From assembly GCA_964625685.1 (NCBI GenBank), contig CAZVBO010000002.1:55440-119439 (forward strand): 64,000 nucleotides of DNA. Reading direction: 5' to 3'. Below the pieces are notes generated by a model. The model was not told the origin of the DNA. It worked only from the letters and a program-made list of their open reading frames with translations, and made no database searches. Each line of letters starts with the position of its first letter. Within the stretch, counting starts at the first letter, position 1. Made by a program: the position numbers and the translations under genes. Source of the stretch: an uncultured Pseudomonadales bacterium. Lineage in GTDB: Bacteria; Patescibacteriota; Microgenomatia; UBA1400; PJMF01. Below, piece after piece: positions 6,160 to 58,032 of this stretch.

Positions 6160-7329
6160 ATGGAATGGTGGAAAAAAGTGACCTATGACGACAAAAGAGT
6201 CTTAACTGCTCTATTATCTTGTGATGGGATTGGTCCCAAAACCATTGAGCATTTGCTGAATTTTCTGTGGCAAAGTCATTTCGCATTGATGGAATTTTGG
6301 GATGAACCCAAACTATGTTCGGATAATTTTCGTTTGTCAGAACGACAACTGATAGGGATTGAGAATTTTAAAAAAAAATACTCAATACATAATTATTTAA
6401 ATGAATTATCAGATAAAAATATTAAAGTAATTTTTCCTGATGAACTATTGTACCCGCCACTTTTACAGCAAATTCCCGATTACCCTGTGATGCTATTTGT
6501 GAAAGGTAATTTGGATTTTATTCATGATTTCCCCATAGCGGTAGTAGGGAGTCGAAGTATGACTGAATATGGTCAAATGGCGACCGATCTGATTGTGAGC
6601 CAACTGGTTAGTGTGGGAGCTCAGATTATTTCAGGAGGTATGTATGGGATTGACACTCAAGCACATCAGTCCTGTCTAAAATATGGTGGACCAACAGTCT
6701 GCGTTTTAGGATACGGTTTTGATTATGCTTATCCAGAAACCCACCAATTATTTTTTGAGGAATTGCTTCAACAGGGAGGCACCATTCTGACTGAATTTGC
6801 ACCAACTGTGTCACCTAAACCAGGGAATTTTCCTCGAAGGAACCGAATTGTAGCCGGGATGAGTTTAGGTACGGTGGTCATTGAAGCAGCTAAAAAAAGT
6901 GGTAGTCAAATTACAGCCAGATTGGCTGCAGAATATGGACGAGAGGTTTTTGCTGTACCTGGAAGTATTACTAATCCTTACACAGAAGGCACCAAAATTC
7001 TGATCAATGAAGGGGCAAAACTCGTCAGTTCCGCCACCGACATTCTAGAAGAACTGCACCAGCACTACACTTCTTTACCTGTTTTTGATTCTCATAAAAA
7101 TGTACTCAGTTTGCCAACAAAAAATGATCAAATAGAACAAAAAAATTTACCGGAATTTAGTTCTGATCACCACAAACAGCTCTTTGTGATACTCAAATCC
7201 CAATCGCACACTACGGATGAATTGTGTCAGATGTTACAATTACCCTTTGTCCAATTGAGCCCGTTATTAACCGAGTTGGAGCTTGAAGGCTTAATCGAAA
7301 ACAGGGGCGAAGTGTGGCAGTGTAAATAG
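6160..7329 (+). CDS. dprA: DNA processing protein DprA (Smf family)
   Basis: Rossmann-like core (VVGSRSMTEYGQMATDLIVSQL...ISGGMYGIDTQAHQSCL...VLGYGFDYAYP) and C-terminal winged-helix-like tail; classic dprA-topA adjacency. Confidence 0.8.
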   Translation: MEWWKKVTYDDKRVLTALLSCDGIGPKTIEHLLNFLWQSHFALMEFWDEPKLCSDNFRLSERQLIGIENFKKKYSIHNYLNELSDKNIKVIFPDELLYPPLLQQIPDYPVMLFVKGNLDFIHDFPIAVVGSRSMTEYGQMATDLIVSQLVSVGAQIISGGMYGIDTQAHQSCLKYGGPTVCVLGYGFDYAYPETHQLFFEELLQQGGTILTEFAPTVSPKPGNFPRRNRIVAGMSLGTVVIEAAKKSGSQITARLAAEYGREVFAVPGSITNPYTEGTKILINEGAKLVSSATDILEELHQHYTSLPVFDSHKNVLSLPTKNDQIEQKNLPEFSSDHHKQLFVILKSQSHTTDELCQMLQLPFVQLSPLLTELELEGLIENRGEVWQCK

Positions 7330-7366: not shown

Positions 7367-9562
7367 ATGAAGTTAGTTATTGTAGAATCACCAACTAAAG
7401 CCAAAAAATTAAAAGAATACTTGGGAAGAGATTTTCATATTGAGGCTTCGGTAGGACATGTGCGTGATTTGCCCAAGAAAAATTTGGGCATTGATATTGA
7501 ACATAATTTTGAACCCACGTATGAAGTCAGTGCTGATAAGAAAAAAGTGGTTTCTCAATTAAAAAAACTTTCTAAAACTGCTGATACGGTTTATCTGGCA
7601 ATGGACCCTGATCGCGAGGGGGAAGCCATTGCTTGGCATATTGAGCAACTACTGGGCAAGAAAAAGTTTTTGAGAGCTACCTTTCATGAAATCACCAAAT
7701 CAGCTGTTCAGGAAGCTATCAGTCATCCTGGTGAACTAAACATGAGTCTAGTTGATGCGCAACAGGCTCGTCGAGTTTTAGATCGATTAGTGGGGTATCA
7801 AATTTCACCGGTACTCTGGAAAAAAATCCGTCGTGGCTTATCAGCTGGTCGGGTTCAGTCAGTTGCCTTGAGATTAATTGTCGAGCGAGAGCGAGAAATT
7901 GCCGCTTTTGTCCCAGAAGAATATTGGGAAGTCGATGTATTATTGGCAGTGACAGAACAAGCTTTTTCTAGACAAAAAAAGAAACCAACTGAAAAACCGG
8001 GCTGGTTGGAAACCACACCGGCTGAAATGTTGGTGGGGAGAGTGATTGAAGTCAATCAAAAAAAGTACGAACCAAAAAAAGAAGAACAGGTAACAGATTT
8101 ATTACAAGCTTTGGAAAAAGCAAGTTATCAAGTGCAATCAGTCGAGCGAAAAGAGAGAAAACGCTCACCTTTTGCTCCTTTTACCACTTCAACTCTTCAA
8201 CAAGGAGCTGCCAATAAATTAGGTTTTACGAGTAAACAGACCATGACTTTGGCTCAACAACTCTATGAAGAAGGACTTATTACTTATCATCGAACAGATT
8301 CGGTGAACCTTTCAACTCAGGCTATTGGTACTGCTCGGGGGTTGATTCAACAGCAGTATGGTGAAAAATACCTGCCAGGGAAACCCAACTACTATAGTGC
8401 CAAATCAAAAAATGCCCAAGAAGCTCATGAAGCAATCCGTGTAACTGATCTTTCGATTGTTAAGGATGCCATTTTAGCCAAAAGTAGTAAGTACACGCCC
8501 AATCATGTAAAGTTATATGATTTGATCTGGCGGCGATTTGTTGCCAGCCAGATGACCGATGCCATCTATGATGGGACAACAATTACGACGCAGGCCAAAT
8601 TTACTGATTCTAACCTGAAGTCAGCAACCTTGAGAACCACAGGCTCAGTTTTAAAATTTGACGGTTGGATGAAACTCTTTCCTGGTGGAGAGGATAATTT
8701 ATTGCCTGAGGTTTCAGTAGATCAATCACTTCACTTCGAAGATCTTCATGGAGCTCAAAAATTTACGCAACCTCCAGCACGTTACAATGATGCCTCTTTG
8801 GTCAAAGAATTGGAAAAACGAGGCATTGGGCGACCCAGTACCTATGCCTCTATTATTTCTGTCTTGGAAGCTCGTGGCTATGTAACCCGCGATAAAAAAC
8901 GTTTTATCGCTTCTCCAGTAGGAATGACCGTCACCGATTTTTTGAATGACCACTTTGCGGAAATTATGGATTATGATTTTACTGCTGAAATGGAGGAAGA
9001 CTTAGATCGGGTTTCTCGTGGTGAAAAGGACTGGCGCAAAATTGTTAAAGAATTTTATGGTCCCTTTGAAAAACAAATTGACACGGTAATTGATAAAGCA
9101 GATCGAGTTCAAATTCCAGTAGAGAAGACAGGTGAAAAATGTCCTGACTGTTTGGAGAGACTAAAGAAAGGCGAAATCAATGAATCGGAAGTAGGTGAAG
9201 TAGTTATCCGATCTGGCCGGTTTGGCAAATTCAAGAGTTGTAGCCGATTTCCAGAATGTAAATATACGGAAAATATTGTCGAAACAGTGCCTGGCGTCAA
9301 GTGTCCACTCTGTGGAAAAGGCGATGTGATTGCTCGTAACACTCGCTGGGGAAGACAGTTCTATGGATGTAGTGAATATCCCAAATGTGATTGGGCCAGT
9401 TGGACTCCACCTAAACCCGGTGACAAAATTACACCAGCAGAGTGGAAGAAACAACAAGCGGCTCGAGCTGAGCGCAATGCTAAACGTAAAGCCACGATGG
9501 AAGCAAGGTATGGGAAATCAAAAGCTGGAAAACCAAAAGTAAAAAGCAAAAAAAAGAGTTGA
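7367..9562 (+). CDS. topA: DNA topoisomerase I
   Basis: TOPRIM N-terminus (MKLVIVESPTKAKKL...LAMDPDREGEAIAWH); active-site tyrosine region (YHRTDS-like: ITYHRTDSV); multiple C-terminal C4 zinc ribbons; Lys-rich tail. The ORF track starts at 7346, but an AGGAAA ribosome-binding site sits before the ATG at 7367. Confidence 0.88.
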   Translation: MKLVIVESPTKAKKLKEYLGRDFHIEASVGHVRDLPKKNLGIDIEHNFEPTYEVSADKKKVVSQLKKLSKTADTVYLAMDPDREGEAIAWHIEQLLGKKKFLRATFHEITKSAVQEAISHPGELNMSLVDAQQARRVLDRLVGYQISPVLWKKIRRGLSAGRVQSVALRLIVEREREIAAFVPEEYWEVDVLLAVTEQAFSRQKKKPTEKPGWLETTPAEMLVGRVIEVNQKKYEPKKEEQVTDLLQALEKASYQVQSVERKERKRSPFAPFTTSTLQQGAANKLGFTSKQTMTLAQQLYEEGLITYHRTDSVNLSTQAIGTARGLIQQQYGEKYLPGKPNYYSAKSKNAQEAHEAIRVTDLSIVKDAILAKSSKYTPNHVKLYDLIWRRFVASQMTDAIYDGTTITTQAKFTDSNLKSATLRTTGSVLKFDGWMKLFPGGEDNLLPEVSVDQSLHFEDLHGAQKFTQPPARYNDASLVKELEKRGIGRPSTYASIISVLEARGYVTRDKKRFIASPVGMTVTDFLNDHFAEIMDYDFTAEMEEDLDRVSRGEKDWRKIVKEFYGPFEKQIDTVIDKADRVQIPVEKTGEKCPDCLERLKKGEINESEVGEVVIRSGRFGKFKSCSRFPECKYTENIVETVPGVKCPLCGKGDVIARNTRWGRQFYGCSEYPKCDWASWTPPKPGDKITPAEWKKQQAARAERNAKRKATMEARYGKSKAGKPKVKSKKKS

Positions 9563-16303: not shown

Positions 16304-16346
16304 TGTCTACTGTTTAGGAAAAAAATTCAGGTCTCAAATTTCACCT

Positions 16347-16428
16347 GCCCGCAATGCTTTCAGCACCTGCCAGCAAATGCTGAGCATTAGACTCTGCAGG
16401 CTGGTAGCTGAAGCAGGCGGGAATTACA
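16347..16428 (+). other. GC-rich, multi-hairpin structured element in the convergent folA/purA intergenic region (candidate small RNA or complex terminator)
   Basis: Outer stem CCUGCCCGC / GCAGGCGGG (8/9 pairs including one G-U) encloses inner hairpins (UGCU-UUC-AGCA; CCAGC ... GCUGG). GC content is much higher than the surrounding AT-rich spacer. Confidence 0.35.
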
Positions 16429-16533
16429 AATAAATTCCAAGTTCCAAAATCCAGCCACTTGTAACTAGTCACGAGTAACTTTTTTCTTTACTTTCTGGTC
16501 TTTCAACTTTACTTTTATCTTTCCTCACCCTGG

Positions 16534-16554
16534 ATCCTGAGTCTAACTCAGGAT
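16534..16554. other. Perfect 9-bp stem / 3-nt loop hairpin (ATCCTGAGT-CTA-ACTCAGGAT) just downstream of purA
   Basis: Inverted repeat read directly. There is no adjacent U-run on either strand, so it is not a canonical intrinsic terminator; it may be an RNase or processing hairpin. Confidence 0.4.
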
Positions 16555-16601
16555 GACAATAAAGAAGTTTTTGGCTTCAAGCTTTTGGCTTTTCACTTCT
16601 C

Positions 16602-36771: not shown

Positions 36772-37482
36772 TTAGACGTGATGAGCCTCGATTAAGAACA
36801 AACCTTTGGCTTGTTGAAAGTGAATTTGTTTGCCTTTTTTCCAAAAGGTGAGTTGAAACTGATGATCTTCTAAAAATTTTTGGAGTTGAGCCAATTTCTG
36901 ACTGGGATGAGTGTGAAACTCAATCATCATAGACTGAATCTGGCTGACTTGGTCATGGAGGGACATCAACACTTTTTGCTCCATGCCTTCAATATCCAGT
37001 TTGAGAAAAATGAAGGGATTTTTGGTTTCTGCTTTAATTTTATTCAGGAAGAAAGACAAAGTTTGAGTAGTGACTGTTATATTTTCAGTTTGCTGTTCGC
37101 CGCTCCAAGCGTGAGGATGCAAACTAGCCGTGCTAAACCAATCAAATTCAGTATCAGCATGAAACTCAGCCTGGCCAGCGGTCTGAGCTAAAGCCACTTG
37201 ATAGGTTTCGACATTGTTCAGATTATTCTCCCAAATATTCTGTTCTAAAAGTTGATAGTTCACTGGGTGAGGTTCAATGGCAATGATCTTGGCCTGGGGA
37301 AACATTTTTTTAAAATAAACAGTAGATAAGCCTATATGTGCCCCAGCATCAATGACCCATAAATTTTCTGATTCAATATTAAGGTCATAGATTCGCTGAA
37401 TAAAGATTTCATTTTTGAGTTCATGAAATTCTTCTTGATTATGGTAGTGAATGGTGAAATTCTGAAGCTTAGTTGTTGGCAT
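36772..37482 (-). CDS. FkbM-family SAM-dependent methyltransferase
   Basis: VIDAGAHIGLSTVYFKKMFPQAKIIAIEPHPVNYQLLEQN matches the FkbM motif I/II layout; convergent with glyA, with zero spacing. Confidence 0.65.
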   Translation of the reverse strand: MPTTKLQNFTIHYHNQEEFHELKNEIFIQRIYDLNIESENLWVIDAGAHIGLSTVYFKKMFPQAKIIAIEPHPVNYQLLEQNIWENNLNNVETYQVALAQTAGQAEFHADTEFDWFSTASLHPHAWSGEQQTENITVTTQTLSFFLNKIKAETKNPFIFLKLDIEGMEQKVLMSLHDQVSQIQSMMIEFHTHPSQKLAQLQKFLEDHQFQLTFWKKGKQIHFQQAKGLFLIEAHHV

Positions 37483-37526
37483 TGAGTAGGGTAATTATCT
37501 CACATGGGAAAAAACTTCTTAATCGT

Positions 37527-37675
37527 CATCGCGGATCGCGCCAAACGCGAGTCCAAGATCTTTAAAATTGGTTGACTTTGTTAAAGATTCCACCTGCCTG
37601 CGCAGGCAGGAACTCGAGCCAGACTCGATCTGGAATGACGTAGGACTGAGGATTTTTGGTCCGCCAATTGGCGGA
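37527..37675. promoter_or_regulatory. Divergent promoter region (fkbM-like <- -> nfo) packed with perfect palindromes, candidate operators
   Basis: TCGCG-CCAAA-CGCGA (37536-37550), TCTTTAA...TTAAAGA (37559-37587), CCTGCCTGC|GCAGGCAGG (37593-37610, perfect 18-mer) and TCCGCCAA|TTGGCGGA (37660-37675, perfect 16-mer), all GC-rich in an AT-rich spacer. Confidence 0.45.
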
Positions 37676-37734: not shown

Positions 37735-38625
37735 ATGAGAAAAATTGGTGGACATGTCTCAGCAAGTGGTGGTTTAGACAAAGCAGTTGATCGGGCCGCT
37801 GATATCGGGGCGAATTGTTTACAGCTTTTTTCGGGTAGTCCACGGGTGTGGGCTCGTAAGTCCTTATCAGAAATCAATACAGAAAAATTGTTCTCAAAAC
37901 AACAAAATTTAAGCGTCTCACCAATCATTACTCATTCTCTTTATTTGATTAATTTAGCTTCCGATAATGAGGCTTTGGTCGAAAAATCAATCAACGCCTT
38001 AATTTATGATATGAAGTTTGATGCACAAATTCAGGGAGCAGGGATTGTGGTACACGTGGGCAGTCATACGGGTCGAGGTTGGGAAGAAGTGAACCAAAAG
38101 GTCGTGGAACGAATTGGCCAAATCATTGACCAAAGTCCTCAGGAGGCAACCTTTTTAATCGAAAACTCGGCAGGACAAGGTGGAAAGTTGCATAGTGATC
38201 TGGAAGATATTCGGTGGACATTTGACCAATTACCTGAAATGGTTGAACAAGGAAGACTTGGTTGGTGTTTTGACACTTGTCATGGTTTTGCTAATGGCTA
38301 TCAACTGGGAGACTCTACACCCTCTATTTCAGACAAATCAAAACACGAATCAAAAGGTTTGGCCAGTGATAAAATTTCCGAATTGAATTTATGGTCAACT
38401 CTCAAGTGTATTCATGTCAATGACAGTAAGGATCCATTTGGTTCGGGTAGAGACCGGCATGAAAATATCGGCGATGGTCAAATTCCTCTCGAGGATTTAC
38501 AATACTTCCTCAATTTAGATCAGGTGACCGCAATTCCCCTCATTACCGAAGTTCCCGGTATTGATGGAAAAGGTCCAGATCAAGAAAATATTGAGCGAAT
38601 TAAAAAGTTAGTTGGTGAAACTTAA
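37735..38625 (+). CDS. nfo: Endonuclease IV (AP endonuclease family 2, TIM barrel)
   Basis: IGGHVSASGG...AADIGANCLQLF...HSLYLINLAS...VVHVGSH metal-ligand pattern; 296 aa. Confidence 0.85.
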   Translation: MRKIGGHVSASGGLDKAVDRAADIGANCLQLFSGSPRVWARKSLSEINTEKLFSKQQNLSVSPIITHSLYLINLASDNEALVEKSINALIYDMKFDAQIQGAGIVVHVGSHTGRGWEEVNQKVVERIGQIIDQSPQEATFLIENSAGQGGKLHSDLEDIRWTFDQLPEMVEQGRLGWCFDTCHGFANGYQLGDSTPSISDKSKHESKGLASDKISELNLWSTLKCIHVNDSKDPFGSGRDRHENIGDGQIPLEDLQYFLNLDQVTAIPLITEVPGIDGKGPDQENIERIKKLVGET

Positions 38626-40894: not shown

Positions 40895-40910
40895 TCTCAT
40901 ATTTTTTATG

Positions 40911-40939
40911 AAAGCATAACCCCGTACTATTAAAAGTAC
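40911..40939 (+). terminator. Rho-independent terminator after tsf
   Basis: CCCCGTACT-ATTAAA-AGTACGGGG followed by TTTTT. Confidence 0.75.
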
Positions 40940-40982
40940 GGGGTTTTTGTACCTATTCCCATTTTGATAAAAAAAAGTTAAG

Positions 40983-42306: not shown

Positions 42307-42921
42307 ATGGCAAAACTTCCACGCGCTGTTGACAGACTGATCGAAAAATTTGAACGACTTCCCGGAGTGGGCCCTAAATCGGCTCAGCGCCTGGTTTTTT
42401 ACCTCCTGCATAATCCAGAAAGTGAGTTGCAGGATTTTTCTGATCGATTGCTGGCTTTAAAACGAGAAACGGTCTTATGTAGCCACTGTCATAATGTATC
42501 GGAAAATGATCCCTGTAGCGTCTGTGACGATGTCACCCGAGATAAAACTCGATTGATGGTGGTGGAACAACCCCTTGATATGCTGGCAGTAGAAAAGTCG
42601 GATCGGTACAATGGTCTCTATCATGTGCTGCACGGAGCCATTTCCCCCCTCAATAATATTGGTCCCAGCCAACTCTATTTGACCGACATCGTGAATCGAT
42701 TGGAAGGAGTAGAGGAACTCATTTTGGCTACCAATCCCACCATGGAAGGTGAAGCCACTGCCCTTTACATTAAAGAATTGGTCGAAAACGCCGTTGCTTC
42801 TCAGGATCTTGCTGAGATCCAGATCACCCGGATTGGACACGGTCTACCGATTGGGGCAGATATAGAGTATGCCGATAGCCAAACCATTGCTCGTGCCTTA
42901 GAAGGTCGACGGGGAATTTAA
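42307..42921 (+). CDS. recR: Recombination protein RecR
   Basis: N-terminal HhH (LIEKFERLPGVGPKSAQRLVFYLL), C4 zinc finger CSHCHNVSENDPCSVC, Toprim domain; 204 aa. Confidence 0.88.
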   Translation: MAKLPRAVDRLIEKFERLPGVGPKSAQRLVFYLLHNPESELQDFSDRLLALKRETVLCSHCHNVSENDPCSVCDDVTRDKTRLMVVEQPLDMLAVEKSDRYNGLYHVLHGAISPLNNIGPSQLYLTDIVNRLEGVEELILATNPTMEGEATALYIKELVENAVASQDLAEIQITRIGHGLPIGADIEYADSQTIARALEGRRGI

Positions 42922-43148
42922 CAGCAGTCTTACACTTCTCTTGCTAAAGTGATCCCTTTTTATATAGAGACGCATCTTGTTCCAGATGGATGTTTTTGAT
43001 ATAGTTTTTGCTACATGAGTTCGCTCTGGCAATTAAAAAAGAGACCTAGTCTTTTTACCTAAATGGGTTGAAAGATTGGGTCTTTTTTATCAGTTATTTT
43101 CCTTGACTCTTGCCCAATAGAGCTAAAAGGGAAGTAAGGAGGTTGATA

Positions 43149-43514
43149 ATGAAAGTTATCATCCAGTCGAACACATTGAAGGTGACGGAGGCACTACGAA
43201 TTTTTATTCAAAAACAAATTCGCAAGTTAGCCCGCTGTGGTCAAAAGATCCAACAAGTGACCGTATACTTGGATTGCGTCAAACGCAAGAAAAATGCCGC
43301 TGATGCCACTACCGTGCAGTTTCAGATTACGACCGCTAAAAATAGCTTTGTAGTCAAGAAACAAGCGCACGACATGTACGTGGCTATCAGTGAAGTCGCA
43401 GATAGAGCTACTCGCTTACTGAGGGAGAAGCGTCATAAATATCTTGATAATAAAAGAAAAATATCGCCAAAGCTTAAACTTTTAGAAAACTTTGATTTAG
43501 CTTGGGTAGAATAG
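43149..43514 (+). CDS. hpf: Ribosome hibernation-promoting factor / RaiA-family (sigma-54 modulation protein-like)
   Basis: MKVIIQSNTLKVTEALRIFIQKQIRKL... matches the HPF/YfiA beta-alpha-beta fold signature; strong RBS AAGGAGG 6 nt upstream of the ATG at 43149. The track ORF from 43110 is an unsupported extension. Confidence 0.7.
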   Translation: MKVIIQSNTLKVTEALRIFIQKQIRKLARCGQKIQQVTVYLDCVKRKKNAADATTVQFQITTAKNSFVVKKQAHDMYVAISEVADRATRLLREKRHKYLDNKRKISPKLKLLENFDLAWVE

Positions 43515-43558
43515 CCTCGGTAAATTTCAAAGATCAAATTTAATAAATAGTTATCCAT

Positions 43559-43630
43559 GTCATCCCCTCGAAAGAGGGGATCTGGGATAGCAGTAGTGTT
43601 TTTCCAGATTCCCGTTTTCACGGGAATGAC
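43559..43630 (+). other. Cloverleaf-like structured element (candidate small ncRNA or regulatory RNA), not a tRNA
   Basis: GTCAT[CCCCTC-GAAA-GAGGGG]ATCTGG[18-nt loop]CCAGAT[TCCCG-TTTTCA-CGGGA]ATGAC: an outer 5-bp stem closes three nested perfect hairpins. The flanks carry a duplicated AGTAGTGTT motif. Confidence 0.4.
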
Positions 43631-43688
43631 GAGTAGTGTTGTTGACTTCCTCTTGTGTCTGTTTGTTTGAAACGGTATCTTAGTCTAT

Positions 43689-44060
43689 ATGACCGATGAT
43701 ACGCAAACCGCTCCAACTTCTTCAGACTCGCCAAAAGCCAATGCACAAGATCCATTAAGTGTCTTGGAAGACATTTTGAATGAAGCCAAAGAGCGAACCG
43801 CTGGAGGAGCCCAAACGACAGAAGAACAAGCAGCAGCAGAAGCGGCCAAACGAGCCGCCATTGAACGGCAAGAAGCAGAACGAAAAAAACAAGACGCATT
43901 AGCTCTGCAGGCAGAAATTGAGAAAATGAAGCAGATTTCAGAAATGCCACAGGAGCAGGCTCGGCTTCGACAAGAACAACAACAAGATGCTGATGCTGCA
44001 GAAGCTAAACAATCACATCAGACCAATCAAATTCGTCAATTAGGTCATACTAAAATTTAA
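43689..44060 (+). CDS. Hypothetical Ala/Glu/Gln-rich coiled-coil protein
   Basis: 123-aa low-complexity helical ORF; the antisense ORF 43618-43950 is more likely spurious. Confidence 0.4.
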   Translation: MTDDTQTAPTSSDSPKANAQDPLSVLEDILNEAKERTAGGAQTTEEQAAAEAAKRAAIERQEAERKKQDALALQAEIEKMKQISEMPQEQARLRQEQQQDADAAEAKQSHQTNQIRQLGHTKI

Positions 44061-53011: not shown

Positions 53012-55408
53012 ATGGACAAATCACAACTATCTGAACGAGACATATGTACCAAATTTATTACGCCAGCAGTACAGCAGGCCGGTTGGGACGTTGATTCACA
53101 AATCCGTGAAGAAGTCAGTTTCACAAAGGGTCGCATCATTGTTAGAGATAAGGTGATTGCCAGAGGTAAACCAAAAAGAGCAGATTACATTCTTTACTAT
53201 AAAGAAAATTTTCCAATTGCCTTGATTGAAGCCAAGGACAACAAGCACTCAGTGGGTGATGGCATGCAACAGGGCCTTGAGTATGCTGAAACCTTGGATA
53301 TTCCTTTTGTGTTTAGCTCAAATGGAGATGCTTTCATAGCTCATGACAGAACTGGTATGTCAGCTGATACGGAAAAGCAGATTCGACTAGATGAATTCCC
53401 AAGCCCTCAAGAGCTGTATCAGCGATACTTGCGTTGGAAAAACATTGATATGGTCGAGGAGCAGATTCTGACCACAGACTACTACTATGACGCTCGTGGC
53501 AAATCACCTCGTTATTATCAACAAATTGCCATCAATAGAACTATTGAAGCAGTGGCCAATGATCAAAAGCGAATCATGTTGGTTATGGCCACCGGTACAG
53601 GGAAAACATACACAGCCTTTCAGATTATGTGGCGTTTGTGGAAGTCAGGGGCCAAAAAGAGAATTTTGTTCTTAGCGGACCGCAACATCCTTATTGATCA
53701 AGCAAAGACCAATGATTTCATTCCATTTGGTGACAAAATGACCAAGATCAGTAATCGCCAGATTGATAAGTCATATGAACTCTACCTTTCCTTGTATCAA
53801 GCTGTGACGGGCAATGAGGAAGAAAAGAACATCTACAAACAATTCAGTCCTGATTTCTTTGATTTGATTATTGTGGATGAGTGTCATCGAGGTAGTGCCA
53901 GAGCAGATTCAGCGTGGAGAGAGATTCTTGAATACTTTGACCATGCTACCCAAATCGGTTTGACTGCCACCCCAAAAGAAACAAAAGATGTCTCAAATAT
54001 TGATTACTTTGGTGAGCCGGTTTACACCTATTCACTCAAGCAAGGTATTGAGGATGGCTTTTTGGCACCTTATAAAGTGGTCCGTTACACCATTGATCGT
54101 GATGTTGAAGGCTACCGTCCAGAGCCTCATAAAAGAGATATTTATGGGGAAGAAGTTCCTGATGAGGTGTATTATGGCCATGATTTTGATCGCAAGCTGA
54201 TTATCGATGACCGAACCAAACTGGTAGCTAAGAAAGTAACTGAATACTTAGAAGCTAATGAAGCATTTGCCAAGACAATCGTGTTCTGTATCGACATCGA
54301 ACATGCCGAAAGAATGAGAAGAGCTTTGATCAATGAAAACCAAGAACGCTACCAAGAGAACTCTAAATACATCATGCGAATTACTGGTGACAATGAGCAG
54401 GGAAAAGCAGAATTAGACGGTTTTATTGATCCTGAGAGCAAATATCCAGTCATTGTGACTACTTCTAAGTTATTGACCACAGGTGTTGATGCTCAAACTT
54501 GTAAGTTAGTGGTCCTTGATGCTCCGATCAAATCAATGACCGAGTTCAAACAAATTGTAGGACGTGGTACGAGACTTCGTGAGGATCATGACAAGTTCTA
54601 CTTCACAATTATGGATTTCCGTAATGCTACGGATAACTTTGCAGATCCTGATTTTGATGGCGAGCCAGTGCAAATTTATGAACCAGTTTTGCCAGCAAAA
54701 ATTGAAGGGGTCCAACCCGTCAAAACACAGTCTGTTTCAACCGATGAACTAGATATTTCAGAAGTTTTGTATGATCCACAGCGTGTTGATGCCATGACAC
54801 TGAGAGATTCAGCCGGTGAAGTGGGGTATCGAACTGGTGGAGTTCACAAATACCACCTCAATGATGTAGAAGTGATGGTCTCAAGTGAGAAAATTCAATT
54901 TTATGATGAGGGTGGCAAACTTGTTTCAGAGTCACTGGAAGAGTATTCAGCCAAAAACTTGAAGAGGCTCTATCCTGAGCTAGCCGATTTCCAACGAGCT
55001 TGGGCGGAAGCTGAAAACAAAACGGTCTTGATTCACAGTTTAGTTGAGAATGGCTTTTTTATTGATGAGCTTCTAGAAAAAGTTGATCCCGCATTAGATA
55101 TTTTTGATTTGGTTCTGAGCGTTGCGTATAAGCAAGAAGCAAGCATGACTCGGTCCCAAAGAGCTCAGCAAGTACGAGGAAGTGAATTTTTCAATCAATA
55201 TCAAGATACACAAAAAGAGCTATTGCTTGATCTTTTGAGTGTGTATGAACAAGAAGGTATTGTGGCAATTGAGGACGTTGAATTGCTTAGGGTTGAACCA
55301 TTCACCAAGTATGGATCACCGGTTGAGATACTTGGGACCATTTTTTCTGGAAGAAATGAATATTTATTAGCATTAGCAGATATGAAGAAGCACTTATACA
55401 AAGGTTAG
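53012..55408 (+). CDS. hsdR: Type I restriction enzyme R subunit (endonuclease / SF2 translocase), compact form
   Basis: N-terminal HsdR nuclease domain (SERDICTKFITPAVQQAGW..., PD-(D/E)xK: ADYILY...IALIEAKD); helicase motifs I MATGTGKTYTAF, II VDECHRGS, later motifs (TATP, QIVGRGTRL). 798 aa, so it lacks a long C-terminal helical domain. Confidence 0.88.
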   Translation: MDKSQLSERDICTKFITPAVQQAGWDVDSQIREEVSFTKGRIIVRDKVIARGKPKRADYILYYKENFPIALIEAKDNKHSVGDGMQQGLEYAETLDIPFVFSSNGDAFIAHDRTGMSADTEKQIRLDEFPSPQELYQRYLRWKNIDMVEEQILTTDYYYDARGKSPRYYQQIAINRTIEAVANDQKRIMLVMATGTGKTYTAFQIMWRLWKSGAKKRILFLADRNILIDQAKTNDFIPFGDKMTKISNRQIDKSYELYLSLYQAVTGNEEEKNIYKQFSPDFFDLIIVDECHRGSARADSAWREILEYFDHATQIGLTATPKETKDVSNIDYFGEPVYTYSLKQGIEDGFLAPYKVVRYTIDRDVEGYRPEPHKRDIYGEEVPDEVYYGHDFDRKLIIDDRTKLVAKKVTEYLEANEAFAKTIVFCIDIEHAERMRRALINENQERYQENSKYIMRITGDNEQGKAELDGFIDPESKYPVIVTTSKLLTTGVDAQTCKLVVLDAPIKSMTEFKQIVGRGTRLREDHDKFYFTIMDFRNATDNFADPDFDGEPVQIYEPVLPAKIEGVQPVKTQSVSTDELDISEVLYDPQRVDAMTLRDSAGEVGYRTGGVHKYHLNDVEVMVSSEKIQFYDEGGKLVSESLEEYSAKNLKRLYPELADFQRAWAEAENKTVLIHSLVENGFFIDELLEKVDPALDIFDLVLSVAYKQEASMTRSQRAQQVRGSEFFNQYQDTQKELLLDLLSVYEQEGIVAIEDVELLRVEPFTKYGSPVEILGTIFSGRNEYLLALADMKKHLYKG

Positions 55409-55411
55409 ATT

Positions 55412-56845
55412 ATGGCACTTTCAACAAAGATCAAAACGATTCAAAACATCATGCGTCAAGACAGTGGTGTCGATGGTGATGCTCAGAGAATTTCGCAATT
55501 AGGCTGGTTGATATTCCTCAAGATTTTTGACGATCGTGAGCGAGAGCTTGAGATCATGAAAGGGGATTATGAATCACCAATGCCAGAAGAGTTGAGATGG
55601 CGAAATTGGGCATTGGACGAAGAAGGTATTACTGGTGATGAGTTATTGAACTTTGTAAACAATGACCTTTTCCCTAAGTTGAAGAACCTTGAAGTCAAAT
55701 CTACCGATGATAAAAAGGCACTTATTTTACGGTCCGTGTTTGAAGATGCTTTCAACTACATGAAGTCAGGGACCTTACTTCGTCAGGTAATCAACGAGCT
55801 GAATGATATTGACTTTGCTAGTTCAAATGACAGACATGTATTCAATGATGTGTATGAAAAAATCCTCAAGGACTTGCAGAGTGCCGGAAATGCCGGTGAG
55901 TTTTACACCCCTCGTGCAGTTACTCAATTTATTGTGGACATGGTGGATCCAAAGCTTGGCGAAAAAGTATTTGACCCCGCTTGTGGTACCGGTGGTTTTT
56001 TGACATCGGTAATTGAGCATGTTCGCAAGAATGAAGTCAAAACGGGTGAAGACAACGAAGCTTTGGCAAATTCAATATATGCAGTAGAAAAGAAACCACT
56101 GCCTCATTTGCTTTGTACAACCAATATGATTCTTCATGGTATTGATGATCCAAGCAATATTGTCAGAGGTAATTCATTGGTTCGTCCTTTGCGTGATTAC
56201 ACCGAAGATGATAGGGTCCATGTGATCGTGACTAATCCACCGTTTGGTGGGACCGAAGAAGATGGAATTGAACTTGGCTTTCCAAAGAAGTTCCAAACAA
56301 GGGAAACTGCTGATTTGTTTTTGGTCCTGATTATTCATTTACTCAAAGAGAATGGTCGAGTGGGTATAGTTTTGCCAGATGGTTCTTTATCTGGTGAAGG
56401 TGTCAAACAGAGAATCAGAGAGCATTTGCTCAATAAATGTAATTTACACACGATTATTCGTTTGCCAAACAGCGTCTTCAAGCCATATGCCACTGTTAGT
56501 ACTAATTTATTGTTTTTCTCAAAGGGTGAGCCAACCAAAGAAGTTTGGTATTACGAGCACCAACTTCCAGACGGATACAAAAGCTATTCAAAGACAAAAC
56601 CAATTCAACTAAGTGAATTTGATGTTATCAAAAAATGGTGGAGCAACAGAGAAGAAGGTCCTTTTTCATGGAAGGTTGGCATCAAAGATATTGAAGAAAA
56701 AGGTTTCAACTTAGATATCAAGAATCCAAATATCAAACGAAAGAAAATTGAACAATCACCAGAAGAAATCATTTCAGAGATTCGAGAGAATCAGAGTCAA
56801 ATTGATCAATTGTTGAGTGAGATTGAGGAACTAATCAAATCATGA
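55412..56845 (+). CDS. hsdM: Type I restriction-modification N6-adenine DNA methyltransferase subunit
   Basis: HsdM N-terminal domain (LGWLIFLKIFDDRE), SAM motif I DPACGTGGFL, catalytic NPPFGG (VTNPPFGGTEE). Confidence 0.9.
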   Translation: MALSTKIKTIQNIMRQDSGVDGDAQRISQLGWLIFLKIFDDRERELEIMKGDYESPMPEELRWRNWALDEEGITGDELLNFVNNDLFPKLKNLEVKSTDDKKALILRSVFEDAFNYMKSGTLLRQVINELNDIDFASSNDRHVFNDVYEKILKDLQSAGNAGEFYTPRAVTQFIVDMVDPKLGEKVFDPACGTGGFLTSVIEHVRKNEVKTGEDNEALANSIYAVEKKPLPHLLCTTNMILHGIDDPSNIVRGNSLVRPLRDYTEDDRVHVIVTNPPFGGTEEDGIELGFPKKFQTRETADLFLVLIIHLLKENGRVGIVLPDGSLSGEGVKQRIREHLLNKCNLHTIIRLPNSVFKPYATVSTNLLFFSKGEPTKEVWYYEHQLPDGYKSYSKTKPIQLSEFDVIKKWWSNREEGPFSWKVGIKDIEEKGFNLDIKNPNIKRKKIEQSPEEIISEIRENQSQIDQLLSEIEELIKS

Positions 56846-58032
56846 GCTATACATTAGATGAACTATGCCATATAGAAAAAGGCAAAATTGGCATTACAAA
56901 AGCCGTTGATGGTGAATATCCATTAGTTACCACTGGTGAAGATTTTGGAACACACAATGAATACCATTTTGAAGGTCCTGCTGTATGTGTGCCACTAGTT
57001 TCTTCAACTGGCCACGGACACGCTAGCATCAAGAGATTGCACTATATTGAAGGAAAGTTTGCTTGTGGAAATATTTTGGCAGTACTGATTCCAAAGGATC
57101 CAAGTAAGTTGTCAGCGAAGTTTTTATACACCTATCTTACTGTTCACAAACAGGAAAAATTGGTGAGAAAAATGAAGGGGGCGGCTAATGTATCTTTGAC
57201 TTTGACAAATTTGAAAAAAGTGAAAATTGAGGACTTGCCTTCGCTGAAAGAACAGGAAAAAATATCTAGCATTTATTCGTCTATTGATAAATTTTCTTTG
57301 GAATTTTTAAAAAAAATTGAATTCAACAAAACAAGAACTAGTACTCTAAAAAATAAGGTTATTGATTTGGCTGTGTTTGGCCATTTTTTACCATATTCAA
57401 ATAATGATTATTCATTTTCAGATGATTTTGATCACTTAGTTCCAAACAAGTGGTCATTTTCTAGCTTAGAGGATATAGCAGAATTCATTGATTATAGAGG
57501 CAAGACTCCAAAAAAAGTTGATACTGGTATTAGGTTGGTCACTGCTAAAAATGTAAAGCTCGGATATTTTTCATATGAGCCAGCAGAATATATGGAATCT
57601 CATGCTTATGATGATTGGATGACAAGAGGGTTTCCTCAAAAGAATGATGTTTTATTTACCACAGAGGCCCCATTAGCTAATACATGTTTATACCCGTTTG
57701 AGCACACAGAGAAAATTGCTTTAGCACAGAGAATCATTACATTGCACCCATATAATGATAGTGATTATATAAAAAGCAGATATTTGTTTTATTGCTTATT
57801 AGCACCTTCAATAAGAAGAAAAATTCAGGCAAAAGCAACTGGTACGGCCGCTTTAGGAATTAGATCTAGTAGGCTAAAAAAAATTATTTTTCCAGTACCT
57901 TCTCAAGATGAGATGCTGAAAATTGTGAATTTTTTGGAAGTTTTCTTTGAGTTCATTGAACAAATTGGATCAAAGGTTTCAGACAATGAAGAAATCATCG
58001 ATAAACTAAAAAATCAATCTTACAAAGGATAG
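56842..58032 (+). CDS. hsdS: Type I R-M specificity subunit with two target-recognition domains
   Basis: Central conserved repeat LKKVKIEDLPSLKEQEKISSIYSSIDKF and C-terminal IIFPVPSQDEMLKIVNFLEVFFEFIEQI flank two variable TRDs; 4-nt overlap with hsdM. Confidence 0.85.
   Translation: MSYTLDELCHIEKGKIGITKAVDGEYPLVTTGEDFGTHNEYHFEGPAVCVPLVSSTGHGHASIKRLHYIEGKFACGNILAVLIPKDPSKLSAKFLYTYLTVHKQEKLVRKMKGAANVSLTLTNLKKVKIEDLPSLKEQEKISSIYSSIDKFSLEFLKKIEFNKTRTSTLKNKVIDLAVFGHFLPYSNNDYSFSDDFDHLVPNKWSFSSLEDIAEFIDYRGKTPKKVDTGIRLVTAKNVKLGYFSYEPAEYMESHAYDDWMTRGFPQKNDVLFTTEAPLANTCLYPFEHTEKIALAQRIITLHPYNDSDYIKSRYLFYCLLAPSIRRKIQAKATGTAALGIRSSRLKKIIFPVPSQDEMLKIVNFLEVFFEFIEQIGSKVSDNEEIIDKLKNQSYKG

Follow-up and report, generated by a model that had tools for sequence, protein, structure and literature searches.

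The element at positions 43559–43630 of the window, which is the whole 64-kb stretch of DNA analyzed here, consists of two inverted, tagged palindromes of a known and widespread DNA repeat; it is not a new structured RNA. With high confidence, we assign it as a head-to-head heterodimer (tags outward) of CGTC/TGTC-tagged palindromic units, which belong to the CGTC-1 REP / dRS3-NTS / SRM family. The host is of a lineage in which this known repeat family had no earlier mention as far as two surveys (PMC11893778, PMC3733652) and a literature search show; the search for REPs in Patescibacteria returned nothing relevant.

Architecture of the element

The initial annotation described the element as four nested stems, and the pairing is present in the sequence exactly as claimed, including a first hairpin with a GAAA loop. 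The parts of this pairing are as follows:

43559–43563, outer stem, 5′ half, GTCAT
43564–43579, first hairpin, CCCCTC-GAAA-GAGGGG
43580–43609, central stem, ATCTGG-18 nt-CCAGAT
43610–43625, second hairpin, TCCCG-TTTTCA-CGGGA
43626–43630, outer stem, 3′ half, ATGAC

The element is a pseudo-palindrome, in which one 28-nt unit occurs twice, inverted, around an 18-nt spacer. The left unit reads TGTCATCCCCTCGAAAGAGGGGATCTGG on the plus strand and the right unit reads CGTCATTCCCGTGAAAACGGGAATCTGG on the minus strand. In terms of these units, the region is organized as follows:

43558–43585, plus strand, left unit TGTC-ATCCCCTC-GAAA-GAGGGGAT-CTGG; TGTC tag, 8-bp stem starting with AT, 4-nt loop, C plus tail; NTS/SRM-like, of CGTC-1 REP type
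43586–43603, spacer GATAGCAGTAGTGTTTTT, 18 nt, AT-rich, containing the first AGTAGTGTT copy
43604–43631, minus strand, right unit CGTC-ATTCCCGT-GAAA-ACGGGAAT-CTGG, read on the minus strand
43632–43640, plus strand, second AGTAGTGTT copy, immediately past the right unit

The two tags, located at 43558–43561 and 43628–43631, face outward, and 26 nt separates the two palindromes. Each unit forms a small hairpin, with the 8-bp stems ATCCCCTC/GAGGGGAT and ATTCCCGT/ACGGGAAT and 4-nt loops; the 'AT' of each stem is taken from the adjoining stems. The three hairpins were initially given stems of 5–6 bp; the pairing itself is correct, but the stems of the small hairpins are really 8 bp in length, with loops of 4 nt. 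The outer stem GTCAT/ATGAC is the 5′ end common to both units and the central stem ATCTGG/CCAGAT is the 3′ end common to both units; these two stems of the cloverleaf exist because the two unit copies are inverted.

Three base pairs distinguish the arms (C-G/T-A, T-A/G-C and C-G/T-A). Every change is double and compensatory, and the GAAA loop is constant. As the differences are all compensatory, weaken the long hairpin that the two arms can form and spare each small hairpin, it is the unit hairpin that is conserved, not a four-way junction. The element is base-for-base identical in eight more independent assemblies, therefore it is no assembly artefact.

The 9-nt sequence AGTAGTGTT is present at 43592–43600 and at 43632–43640, bracketing the right unit. 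The duplication in and after the central loop, noticed at the outset, is thus real, but it is not significant alone: a direct repeat of this length was found in 241 of 5000 shuffles and in 63 of 734 real 174-nt windows (p ∼0.05–0.09). It resembles a target-site duplication, but owing to this lack of significance we did not retain it as one; the second copy may be the trace of a unit insertion or duplication, or may be due to chance. Allowing up to three mismatches, no further copies of either arm were found within the 64-kb window, and a blastn search of a plasmid collection gave no match.

Both arms resemble NTS and CGTC-1 REP units

Each arm consists of a GTC tag, an 8-bp stem opening with AT, a GAAA loop and a C right after the palindrome, followed by YRG. 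A full-text search with the core sequence led us to Chenal et al. 2025 (PMC11893778), in which the Neisseria Transformation Sequence (NTS) is given as CGTCATTCCCGCGMAVGCGGGAATCYRG, encompassing the dRS3 repeat ATTCCC-N8-GGGAAT. NTS sensu stricto was searched there with at most one mismatch to CGTCATTCCCGCGMAVGCGGGAATCYRG, and the Ssn-related motif (SRM) with the degenerate sequence HGTCWYN(0-2)YYVSBRHN(0-5)WNVSBRGN(0-2)RNCYNB (PMC11893778).

The right arm (minus strand, 43631 to 43604) is an exact match to the SRM regex, for which the mean by chance is 0.145 matches per window (200 simulated windows). It is identical to the NTS consensus at 26 of 28 positions; the two differing bases, C12T and G17A, pair together and make one compensatory pair (C-G to T-A). 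The right arm is also a perfect dRS3, ATTCCC-N8-GGGAAT. The left arm has five mismatches to NTS, one of them being the tag variant T1 and the other four making up two compensatory pairs (T-A to C-G and G-C to T-A), and it fails the SRM regex at one single stem pair (T-A where S-S is required), which is again a compensatory change. With two mismatches in the right arm and five in the left arm, the units are NTS-like/SRM and not strict NTS. In the published system, cleavage requires the three nucleotides that precede the palindrome on its 5′ side, i.e. the GTC side, and binding requires the C that directly follows it on the 3′ side (PMC11893778). Both arms read GTC-AT...AT-C, and thereby retain the positions on which both activities of Ssn depend.

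The same features are found in the CGTC-tagged REPs of Di Nocera et al. 2013, the tag of which is CGTC, TGTC or CCTC, with TGTC being a common variant (PMC3733652). The stems of these REPs are 8–9 bp in length and start with AT, the loops are of 4–5 nt, and the tail is of 3 nt, most commonly CCA (PMC3733652). In their head-to-head (HH) dimers the tags are on the outside and the spacer is usually 20–100 bp; CGTC-1 is dRS3 in Neisseria and is equivalent to RPE-6 in Rickettsia conorii (PMC3733652). Both arms of the window element carry a TGTC or CGTC tag, an 8-bp AT-starting stem, a 4-nt loop and a CTG tail, and the element accordingly classifies as a CGTC-1 HH heterodimer.

Like NTS and SRM, the arms in the window are oriented hairpin repeats in intergenic DNA. 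Different from the published hosts, which are Pseudomonadati, the host here is a candidate-phyla-radiation (CPR; Microgenomates-like) bacterium; its RecR (42307–42921) has its best matches, of ∼75% identity, in Patescibacteria/Microgenomates MAGs. Further differences are the apparent copy number, which is very low in this host, the lack of ssn in the ∼77 kb examined, and the left arm, which falls just outside the published regex. Like the CGTC-1 HH dimers, the element has a spacer of ∼20 nt, tags facing outward and unlike stems in its two halves, can adopt either separate hairpins or one large stem-loop, and is extragenic, just 3′ of an ORF. Its CTG tail differs from the commonest one, CCA, and its phylum is absent from the five in that survey (PMC3733652).

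Distribution of the unit in metagenomes

We scanned the pattern GTCATNCCCNNGAAANNGGGNATCTGG, which has 21 fixed bases and fits both arms, against metagenome and viral contigs. It matches at least 120 metagenome contigs; in the viral contigs there were 0 matches. The commonest form among the matches listed is GTCATTCCCGCGAAAGCGGGAATCTGG. Among the 119 unique matches listed, GTCAT is preceded by T in 58 and by C in 53, and the three stem pairs that the pattern leaves free covary, with hardly any departure from Watson-Crick pairing (TA 93/CG 20, GC 100/AT 8 and CG 83/TA 28). An inverted, ATGAC-tagged perfect palindrome is located no more than 160 nt away in 38 of these 119 (about one-third), forming a doublet like that of the window. 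For the matches listed, the gap from ATCTGG to the partner palindrome ranges from 0 to 113 nt, with a median of ∼18 nt; the equivalent distance in the window is 22 nt.

The form of the unit is equally uniform. Among the 195 GTCAT-tagged palindromes at the matched loci listed, 184 have 8-bp stems, 175 have 4-nt loops and 110 carry the TGTC tag; by frequency, the right-arm stem ATTCCCGT ranks second among their stem variants. The GC content of the host contigs among the matches listed spans 31–68%, indicating that the hosts are from many unrelated taxa.

Several other arrangements were observed at these loci. Twelve of them (L043, L046, L052, L063, L064, L095, L103, L106, L108, L114, L129 and L132) share a conserved AGATTGGACATTTT extension behind an NTS-like unit, and for 9 of the 12 a contig end is less than 600 nt away. 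The extension probably marks the border of some multicopy element, which might be an IS that has the repeat as its target or as its cargo. A sequence of ∼6.6 kb recurs in L023, L024, L054, L122 and L127, bounded by direct unit copies with identical flanks. In L023, unit copies are located at both contig ends (7–33 and 6650–6676), and the recurrent element is possibly circular or else terminally redundant. Five contigs (L013, L055, L065, L081 and L109) each contain several GTCAT-tagged units of mixed stem types, for example GTCATTGCGAGGAG beside the NTS type; these clusters resemble BIME/NIME-like arrays.

Related elements in the window and in relatives

GTCAT-tagged palindromes are present at three loci of the window, and the ∼77 kb of the genome that we examined contains two dimers, one canonical and the other mosaic, plus a solitary unit. 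Besides the canonical dimer, these are:

16530–16558, minus strand, solitary unit TGTC-ATCCTGAGT-TAG-ACTCAGGAT-CCAG (TGTCATCCTGAGTTAGACTCAGGATCCAG), with a 9-bp stem and a CCA tail
37525–37639, second GTCAT...ATGAC head-to-head element, with a mosaic interior and four hairpins, including the perfect palindrome CCTGCCTGCGCAGGCAGG

The solitary unit sits between two convergent genes, one RibD_C/DHFR-like gene and purA, and fits the CGTC-tagged REPs with 9-bp stems and CCA tail described in PMC3733652. The same intergenic region also contains, at 16346–16425, a long imperfect hairpin lacking the GTCAT tag, which is the second most stable 80-nt fold of the window (−39.3 kcal/mol).

The outer units of the 37525–37639 element, GTCAT-N4-GA-TCGNG-N5-CNCGA-GT, covary (TCGCG/CGCGA versus TCGAG/CTCGA). 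The element is flanked by two divergent genes, encoding an FkbM-type methyltransferase (36772–37482, minus strand) and an AP-endonuclease-type protein (37735–38625, plus strand). Additional palindromes are located beyond it, at 37645–37672.

The nearest relative found, locus L009, has the same gene order around hpf, with 90% identity in RecR, 91% in the hpf product and 73% in the downstream protein. Its hpf spacer carries a different element, 97 nt in length (L009 4378–4474), which starts with GTCAT and ends with ATGAC; the interior of this element is homologous to that of 37525–37639 in the window (88% over 43 nt, E 1e-7). The interiors of the hpf spacers of the window and L009 are non-homologous, and alignment is confined to the ∼60 nt that lead up to the downstream gene (window 43641–43688, L009 4550–4599, ACTTCC.CTTGTGTCT...TGAAACGGTATCTTAGTCTATATG); this conserved stretch may be the promoter or a 5′-UTR signal of the downstream gene. 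In L011 (GCA_015657875.1), a more distant relative, the hpf spacer is 43 nt in length and has no element. No element was present in L012, a distant locus reached via the downstream protein. L009 has a further CGTCAT-tagged element with palindrome CCTGCCTGCGCAGGCAGG (CCTGCCTGCGCAGGCAG) at 8087–8117, directly after cysS, and the equivalent site of the window (47109 onward) has no element. The L009 contig breaks inside the CCTGCCTGCGCAGGCAGG palindrome of its post-cysS element, which suggests a multicopy repeat. Taken together, the differing elements and sites in the window, L009 and L011 indicate a small, fast-changing set of GTCAT-tagged elements that are gained and lost between relatives.

Neisseria intergenic mosaic elements (NIMEs) are RS segments located between dRS3 inverted repeats. 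Like NIMEs, the elements described here bracket intergenic segments with inverted dRS3-type units, and the interiors of 37525–37639 and of the L009 element are mosaic, with shared hairpin modules such as CCTGCCTGCGCAGGCAGG. Different from NIMEs, they are much smaller and far fewer.

This turnover also bears on whether the element is a true REPIN or MITE, i.e. a non-autonomous element mobilized by a RAYT/IS200-type tyrosine transposase or another transposase. REPINs, as outlined in PMC3337134, are two inverted REPs able to form one long hairpin. The window element has this architecture, with two inverted palindromic units, a short spacer and a long imperfect hairpin; its presence varies between relatives, one L009 copy lies at a contig break, and the 9-nt direct repeat could be a flanking one. 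However, the direct repeat is not significant, and the tag is CGTC/TGTC and not of the GTAG type found in REPINs, which are accompanied by a single-copy RAYT gene; no such gene was seen here. No Y1 (PF01797-type) or other transposase was present in the Pfam gene lists of the annotated parts. Moreover, the CGTC families were reported without any transposase-gene association (PMC3733652 Table 1) and were linked to ssn instead (PMC11893778). We therefore consider a strict REPIN or MITE extremely unlikely, and retain the assignment to the CGTC-1/NTS family.

Folding and stability

As RNA, the element has a minimum free energy of −38.9 kcal/mol, compared to −18.3 ± 3.1 kcal/mol for shuffled sequences (z = −6.7; 0 of 200 shuffles were as good), confirming that it is structured beyond chance. 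When both strands of the 64 kb were scanned, it was the most stable 80-nt window. The RNAfold optimum at −38.9 kcal/mol is one single long imperfect hairpin. At −28.1 kcal/mol, the cloverleaf is 10.8 kcal/mol worse than this hairpin. With DNA parameters, the optimum is three separate hairpins without the closing stem. The plus strand, which is the transcribed one, folds better than the minus strand (−38.9 versus −31.9 kcal/mol). This advantage is due to G-U pairs, and the gap is an automatic consequence of the arms differing by transitions.

ARAGORN identified 0 tRNA or tmRNA genes in the 64-kb window; both were ruled out, in agreement with the earlier view that the element is not a tRNA. The comparison with Rfam that was proposed at the start matched no family: Rfam 15 gave 0 matches at gathering score on the whole window, and a local scan at an E of 10 or less gave only chance-level matches of 15–16 bits. 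No Rfam family, ribozymes included, was therefore retained.

The initial annotation considered the element a cloverleaf RNA, possibly a small ncRNA. A dedicated structured RNA that is transcribed together with hpf, or following it, and acts as RNA, either as small ncRNA or as four-way junction in the 3′-UTR, would agree with the very stable and significant fold, the better folding of the transcribed strand, the location between co-directional genes 45 nt past the hpf stop and the GNRA-type GAAA loops. However, the cloverleaf is disfavored relative to the long hairpin, the strand difference follows automatically from the transitions, and Rfam provided no match even at E ≤10. The stems are those of two inverted 28-nt DNA repeats, and the unit appears in either orientation, across unrelated settings, on at least 120 contigs from many taxa. 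The characterized partner of the unit, SsnA, binds ssDNA and not RNA (PMC11893778). Conservation in relatives had been named beforehand as a point on which the RNA could fall, and conservation is lacking at this locus: another element occupies it in L009, and L011 shows nothing but its 43-nt spacer. Altogether, these observations make a dedicated RNA exceedingly improbable and argue for a pair of DNA repeats.

The hpf context

The hpf gene (Ribosomal_S30AE, Pfam 6.5e-12) is located at 43149–43514, and the element begins 45 nt past its stop codon. On the other side, it lies 59 nt before the gene of a 123-residue protein (43689–44060); the two flanking genes are co-directional. A search with 5-residue words identified no word-sharing homologue of the hpf protein besides itself, and a scan of genome contigs was also empty. 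With the downstream protein, the genome contigs yielded the single distant locus L012. This protein belongs to no Pfam family; it is conserved beside hpf across the clade (49 homologues) and has the motifs PL.VLEDILN.AK at its N-terminus and IRQLGHTKI at its C-terminus.

Since the dimer follows the hpf stop by 45 nt and lies on the strand that is transcribed, a hairpin of ∼−39 kcal/mol would be expected in the hpf mRNA. Such a hairpin could protect the 3′ end of the transcript or attenuate read-through, like other REP dimers, although this would be a side effect and not the reason for the existence of the sequence. The element may have a secondary role at the RNA level. The proposals of a protein-binding scaffold or a 3′-UTR stability element, made at the outset for an RNA, both touch on known or proposed roles of REP-type sequences, and in that sense part of them survives.

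A stronger version would make the element mainly a terminator or 3′-end protective hairpin for hpf, i.e. a REP-type sequence that was co-opted and is kept in place by this role. REP stabilization of upstream mRNA is established in E. coli, and this counts for the 3′-end role, as do the strong hairpin immediately downstream of the hpf stop and the occupation of the same spacer in the window and L009, by different elements. Most CGTC REPs lie close behind the 3′ end of an ORF, with the neighboring genes either unidirectional or convergent, and their transcription is assumed (PMC3733652). On the other hand, no U-tract is present past the stem, which is followed by CGAGUAGUGUUGUUGAC, and the terminator scan reported no site; an intrinsic (rho-independent) terminator was thus rejected. 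The ordinary terminator-like hairpins of the window, such as those at 43040–43085 (after recR) and ∼40895–40940 (after tsf), which have 11–16 bp, differ from it in form. The related element at 37525–37639 is located between divergent genes, where a terminator would be senseless, and L011 manages with a 43-nt spacer. The lack of both U-tract and terminator call, together with the position of the 37525–37639 element, indicates that termination is at best a local side effect; we regard a main role in termination or 3′-end protection as very unlikely.

Ssn nuclease and possible mechanism

SsnA, the nuclease that acts on NTS, is a 94-residue single-domain GIY-YIG protein (cd10448) (PMC11893778). 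It binds and cuts NTS solely as ssDNA and is inactive on dsDNA, RNA and the reverse strand; the cut site is a few nucleotides 5′ of the tag (PMC11893778). In N. meningitidis, the Ssn-NTS system lowers the integration of transforming DNA that bears NTS (PMC11893778). The ssn gene is carried by 81% of the genomes with more than 200 SRMs and is often flanked by repeats, and the units accumulate where ssn is present (PMC11893778).

We searched for ssn with a regex and with phmmer, using the Ssn-like ORF of metagenome locus L068 as query, on all ORFs of at least 40 residues, and also inspected the Pfam gene lists. As positive control, the search recovered the 95-residue GIY-YIG ORF in L068. Neither the window nor its ∼13 kb of added flank (L133/L134) yielded a GIY-YIG gene of the Ssn type, and the L009, L011 and L012 loci were likewise negative. 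The window contains dprA (6160–7329), and since DprA is encoded, uptake and processing of DNA are plausible. A complete type I restriction-modification system is located at 53012–58032 of the window, and immediately beyond the end of the window, L134 16167–17870 encodes a large serine recombinase.

The units in this host, of which the density is low, could be the targets of an Ssn-type enzyme encoded beyond the ∼77 kb examined, or could be relics of past activity or transfer. A bolder proposal is that a genome-reduced CPR bacterium, probably capable of DNA uptake given its dprA, would run an active Ssn-NTS system on a site near-identical to that of Neisseria, with the dimer behind hpf perhaps serving in addition as an RNA 3′-end stabilizer. 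We consider this rather unlikely. If it were true, an active Ssn-NTS system in CPR would imply that the nuclease-repeat pair has spread across phyla, and the system would police incoming ssDNA in an organism that depends on DNA uptake.

Implications

An inverted pair of tagged palindromes automatically yields a 'perfect four-way junction' and can be mistaken for a novel RNA, which calls for caution in the annotation of such elements. For the repeat family itself, the present finding means that NTS/CGTC-REP units reach the Patescibacteria/CPR, which are absent from both surveys, with one unit that is a single base pair off the Neisseria consensus. Provided that a cognate ssn exists there, the co-evolution of Ssn with its repeats and the control of transformation could be studied in CPR genomes as well.
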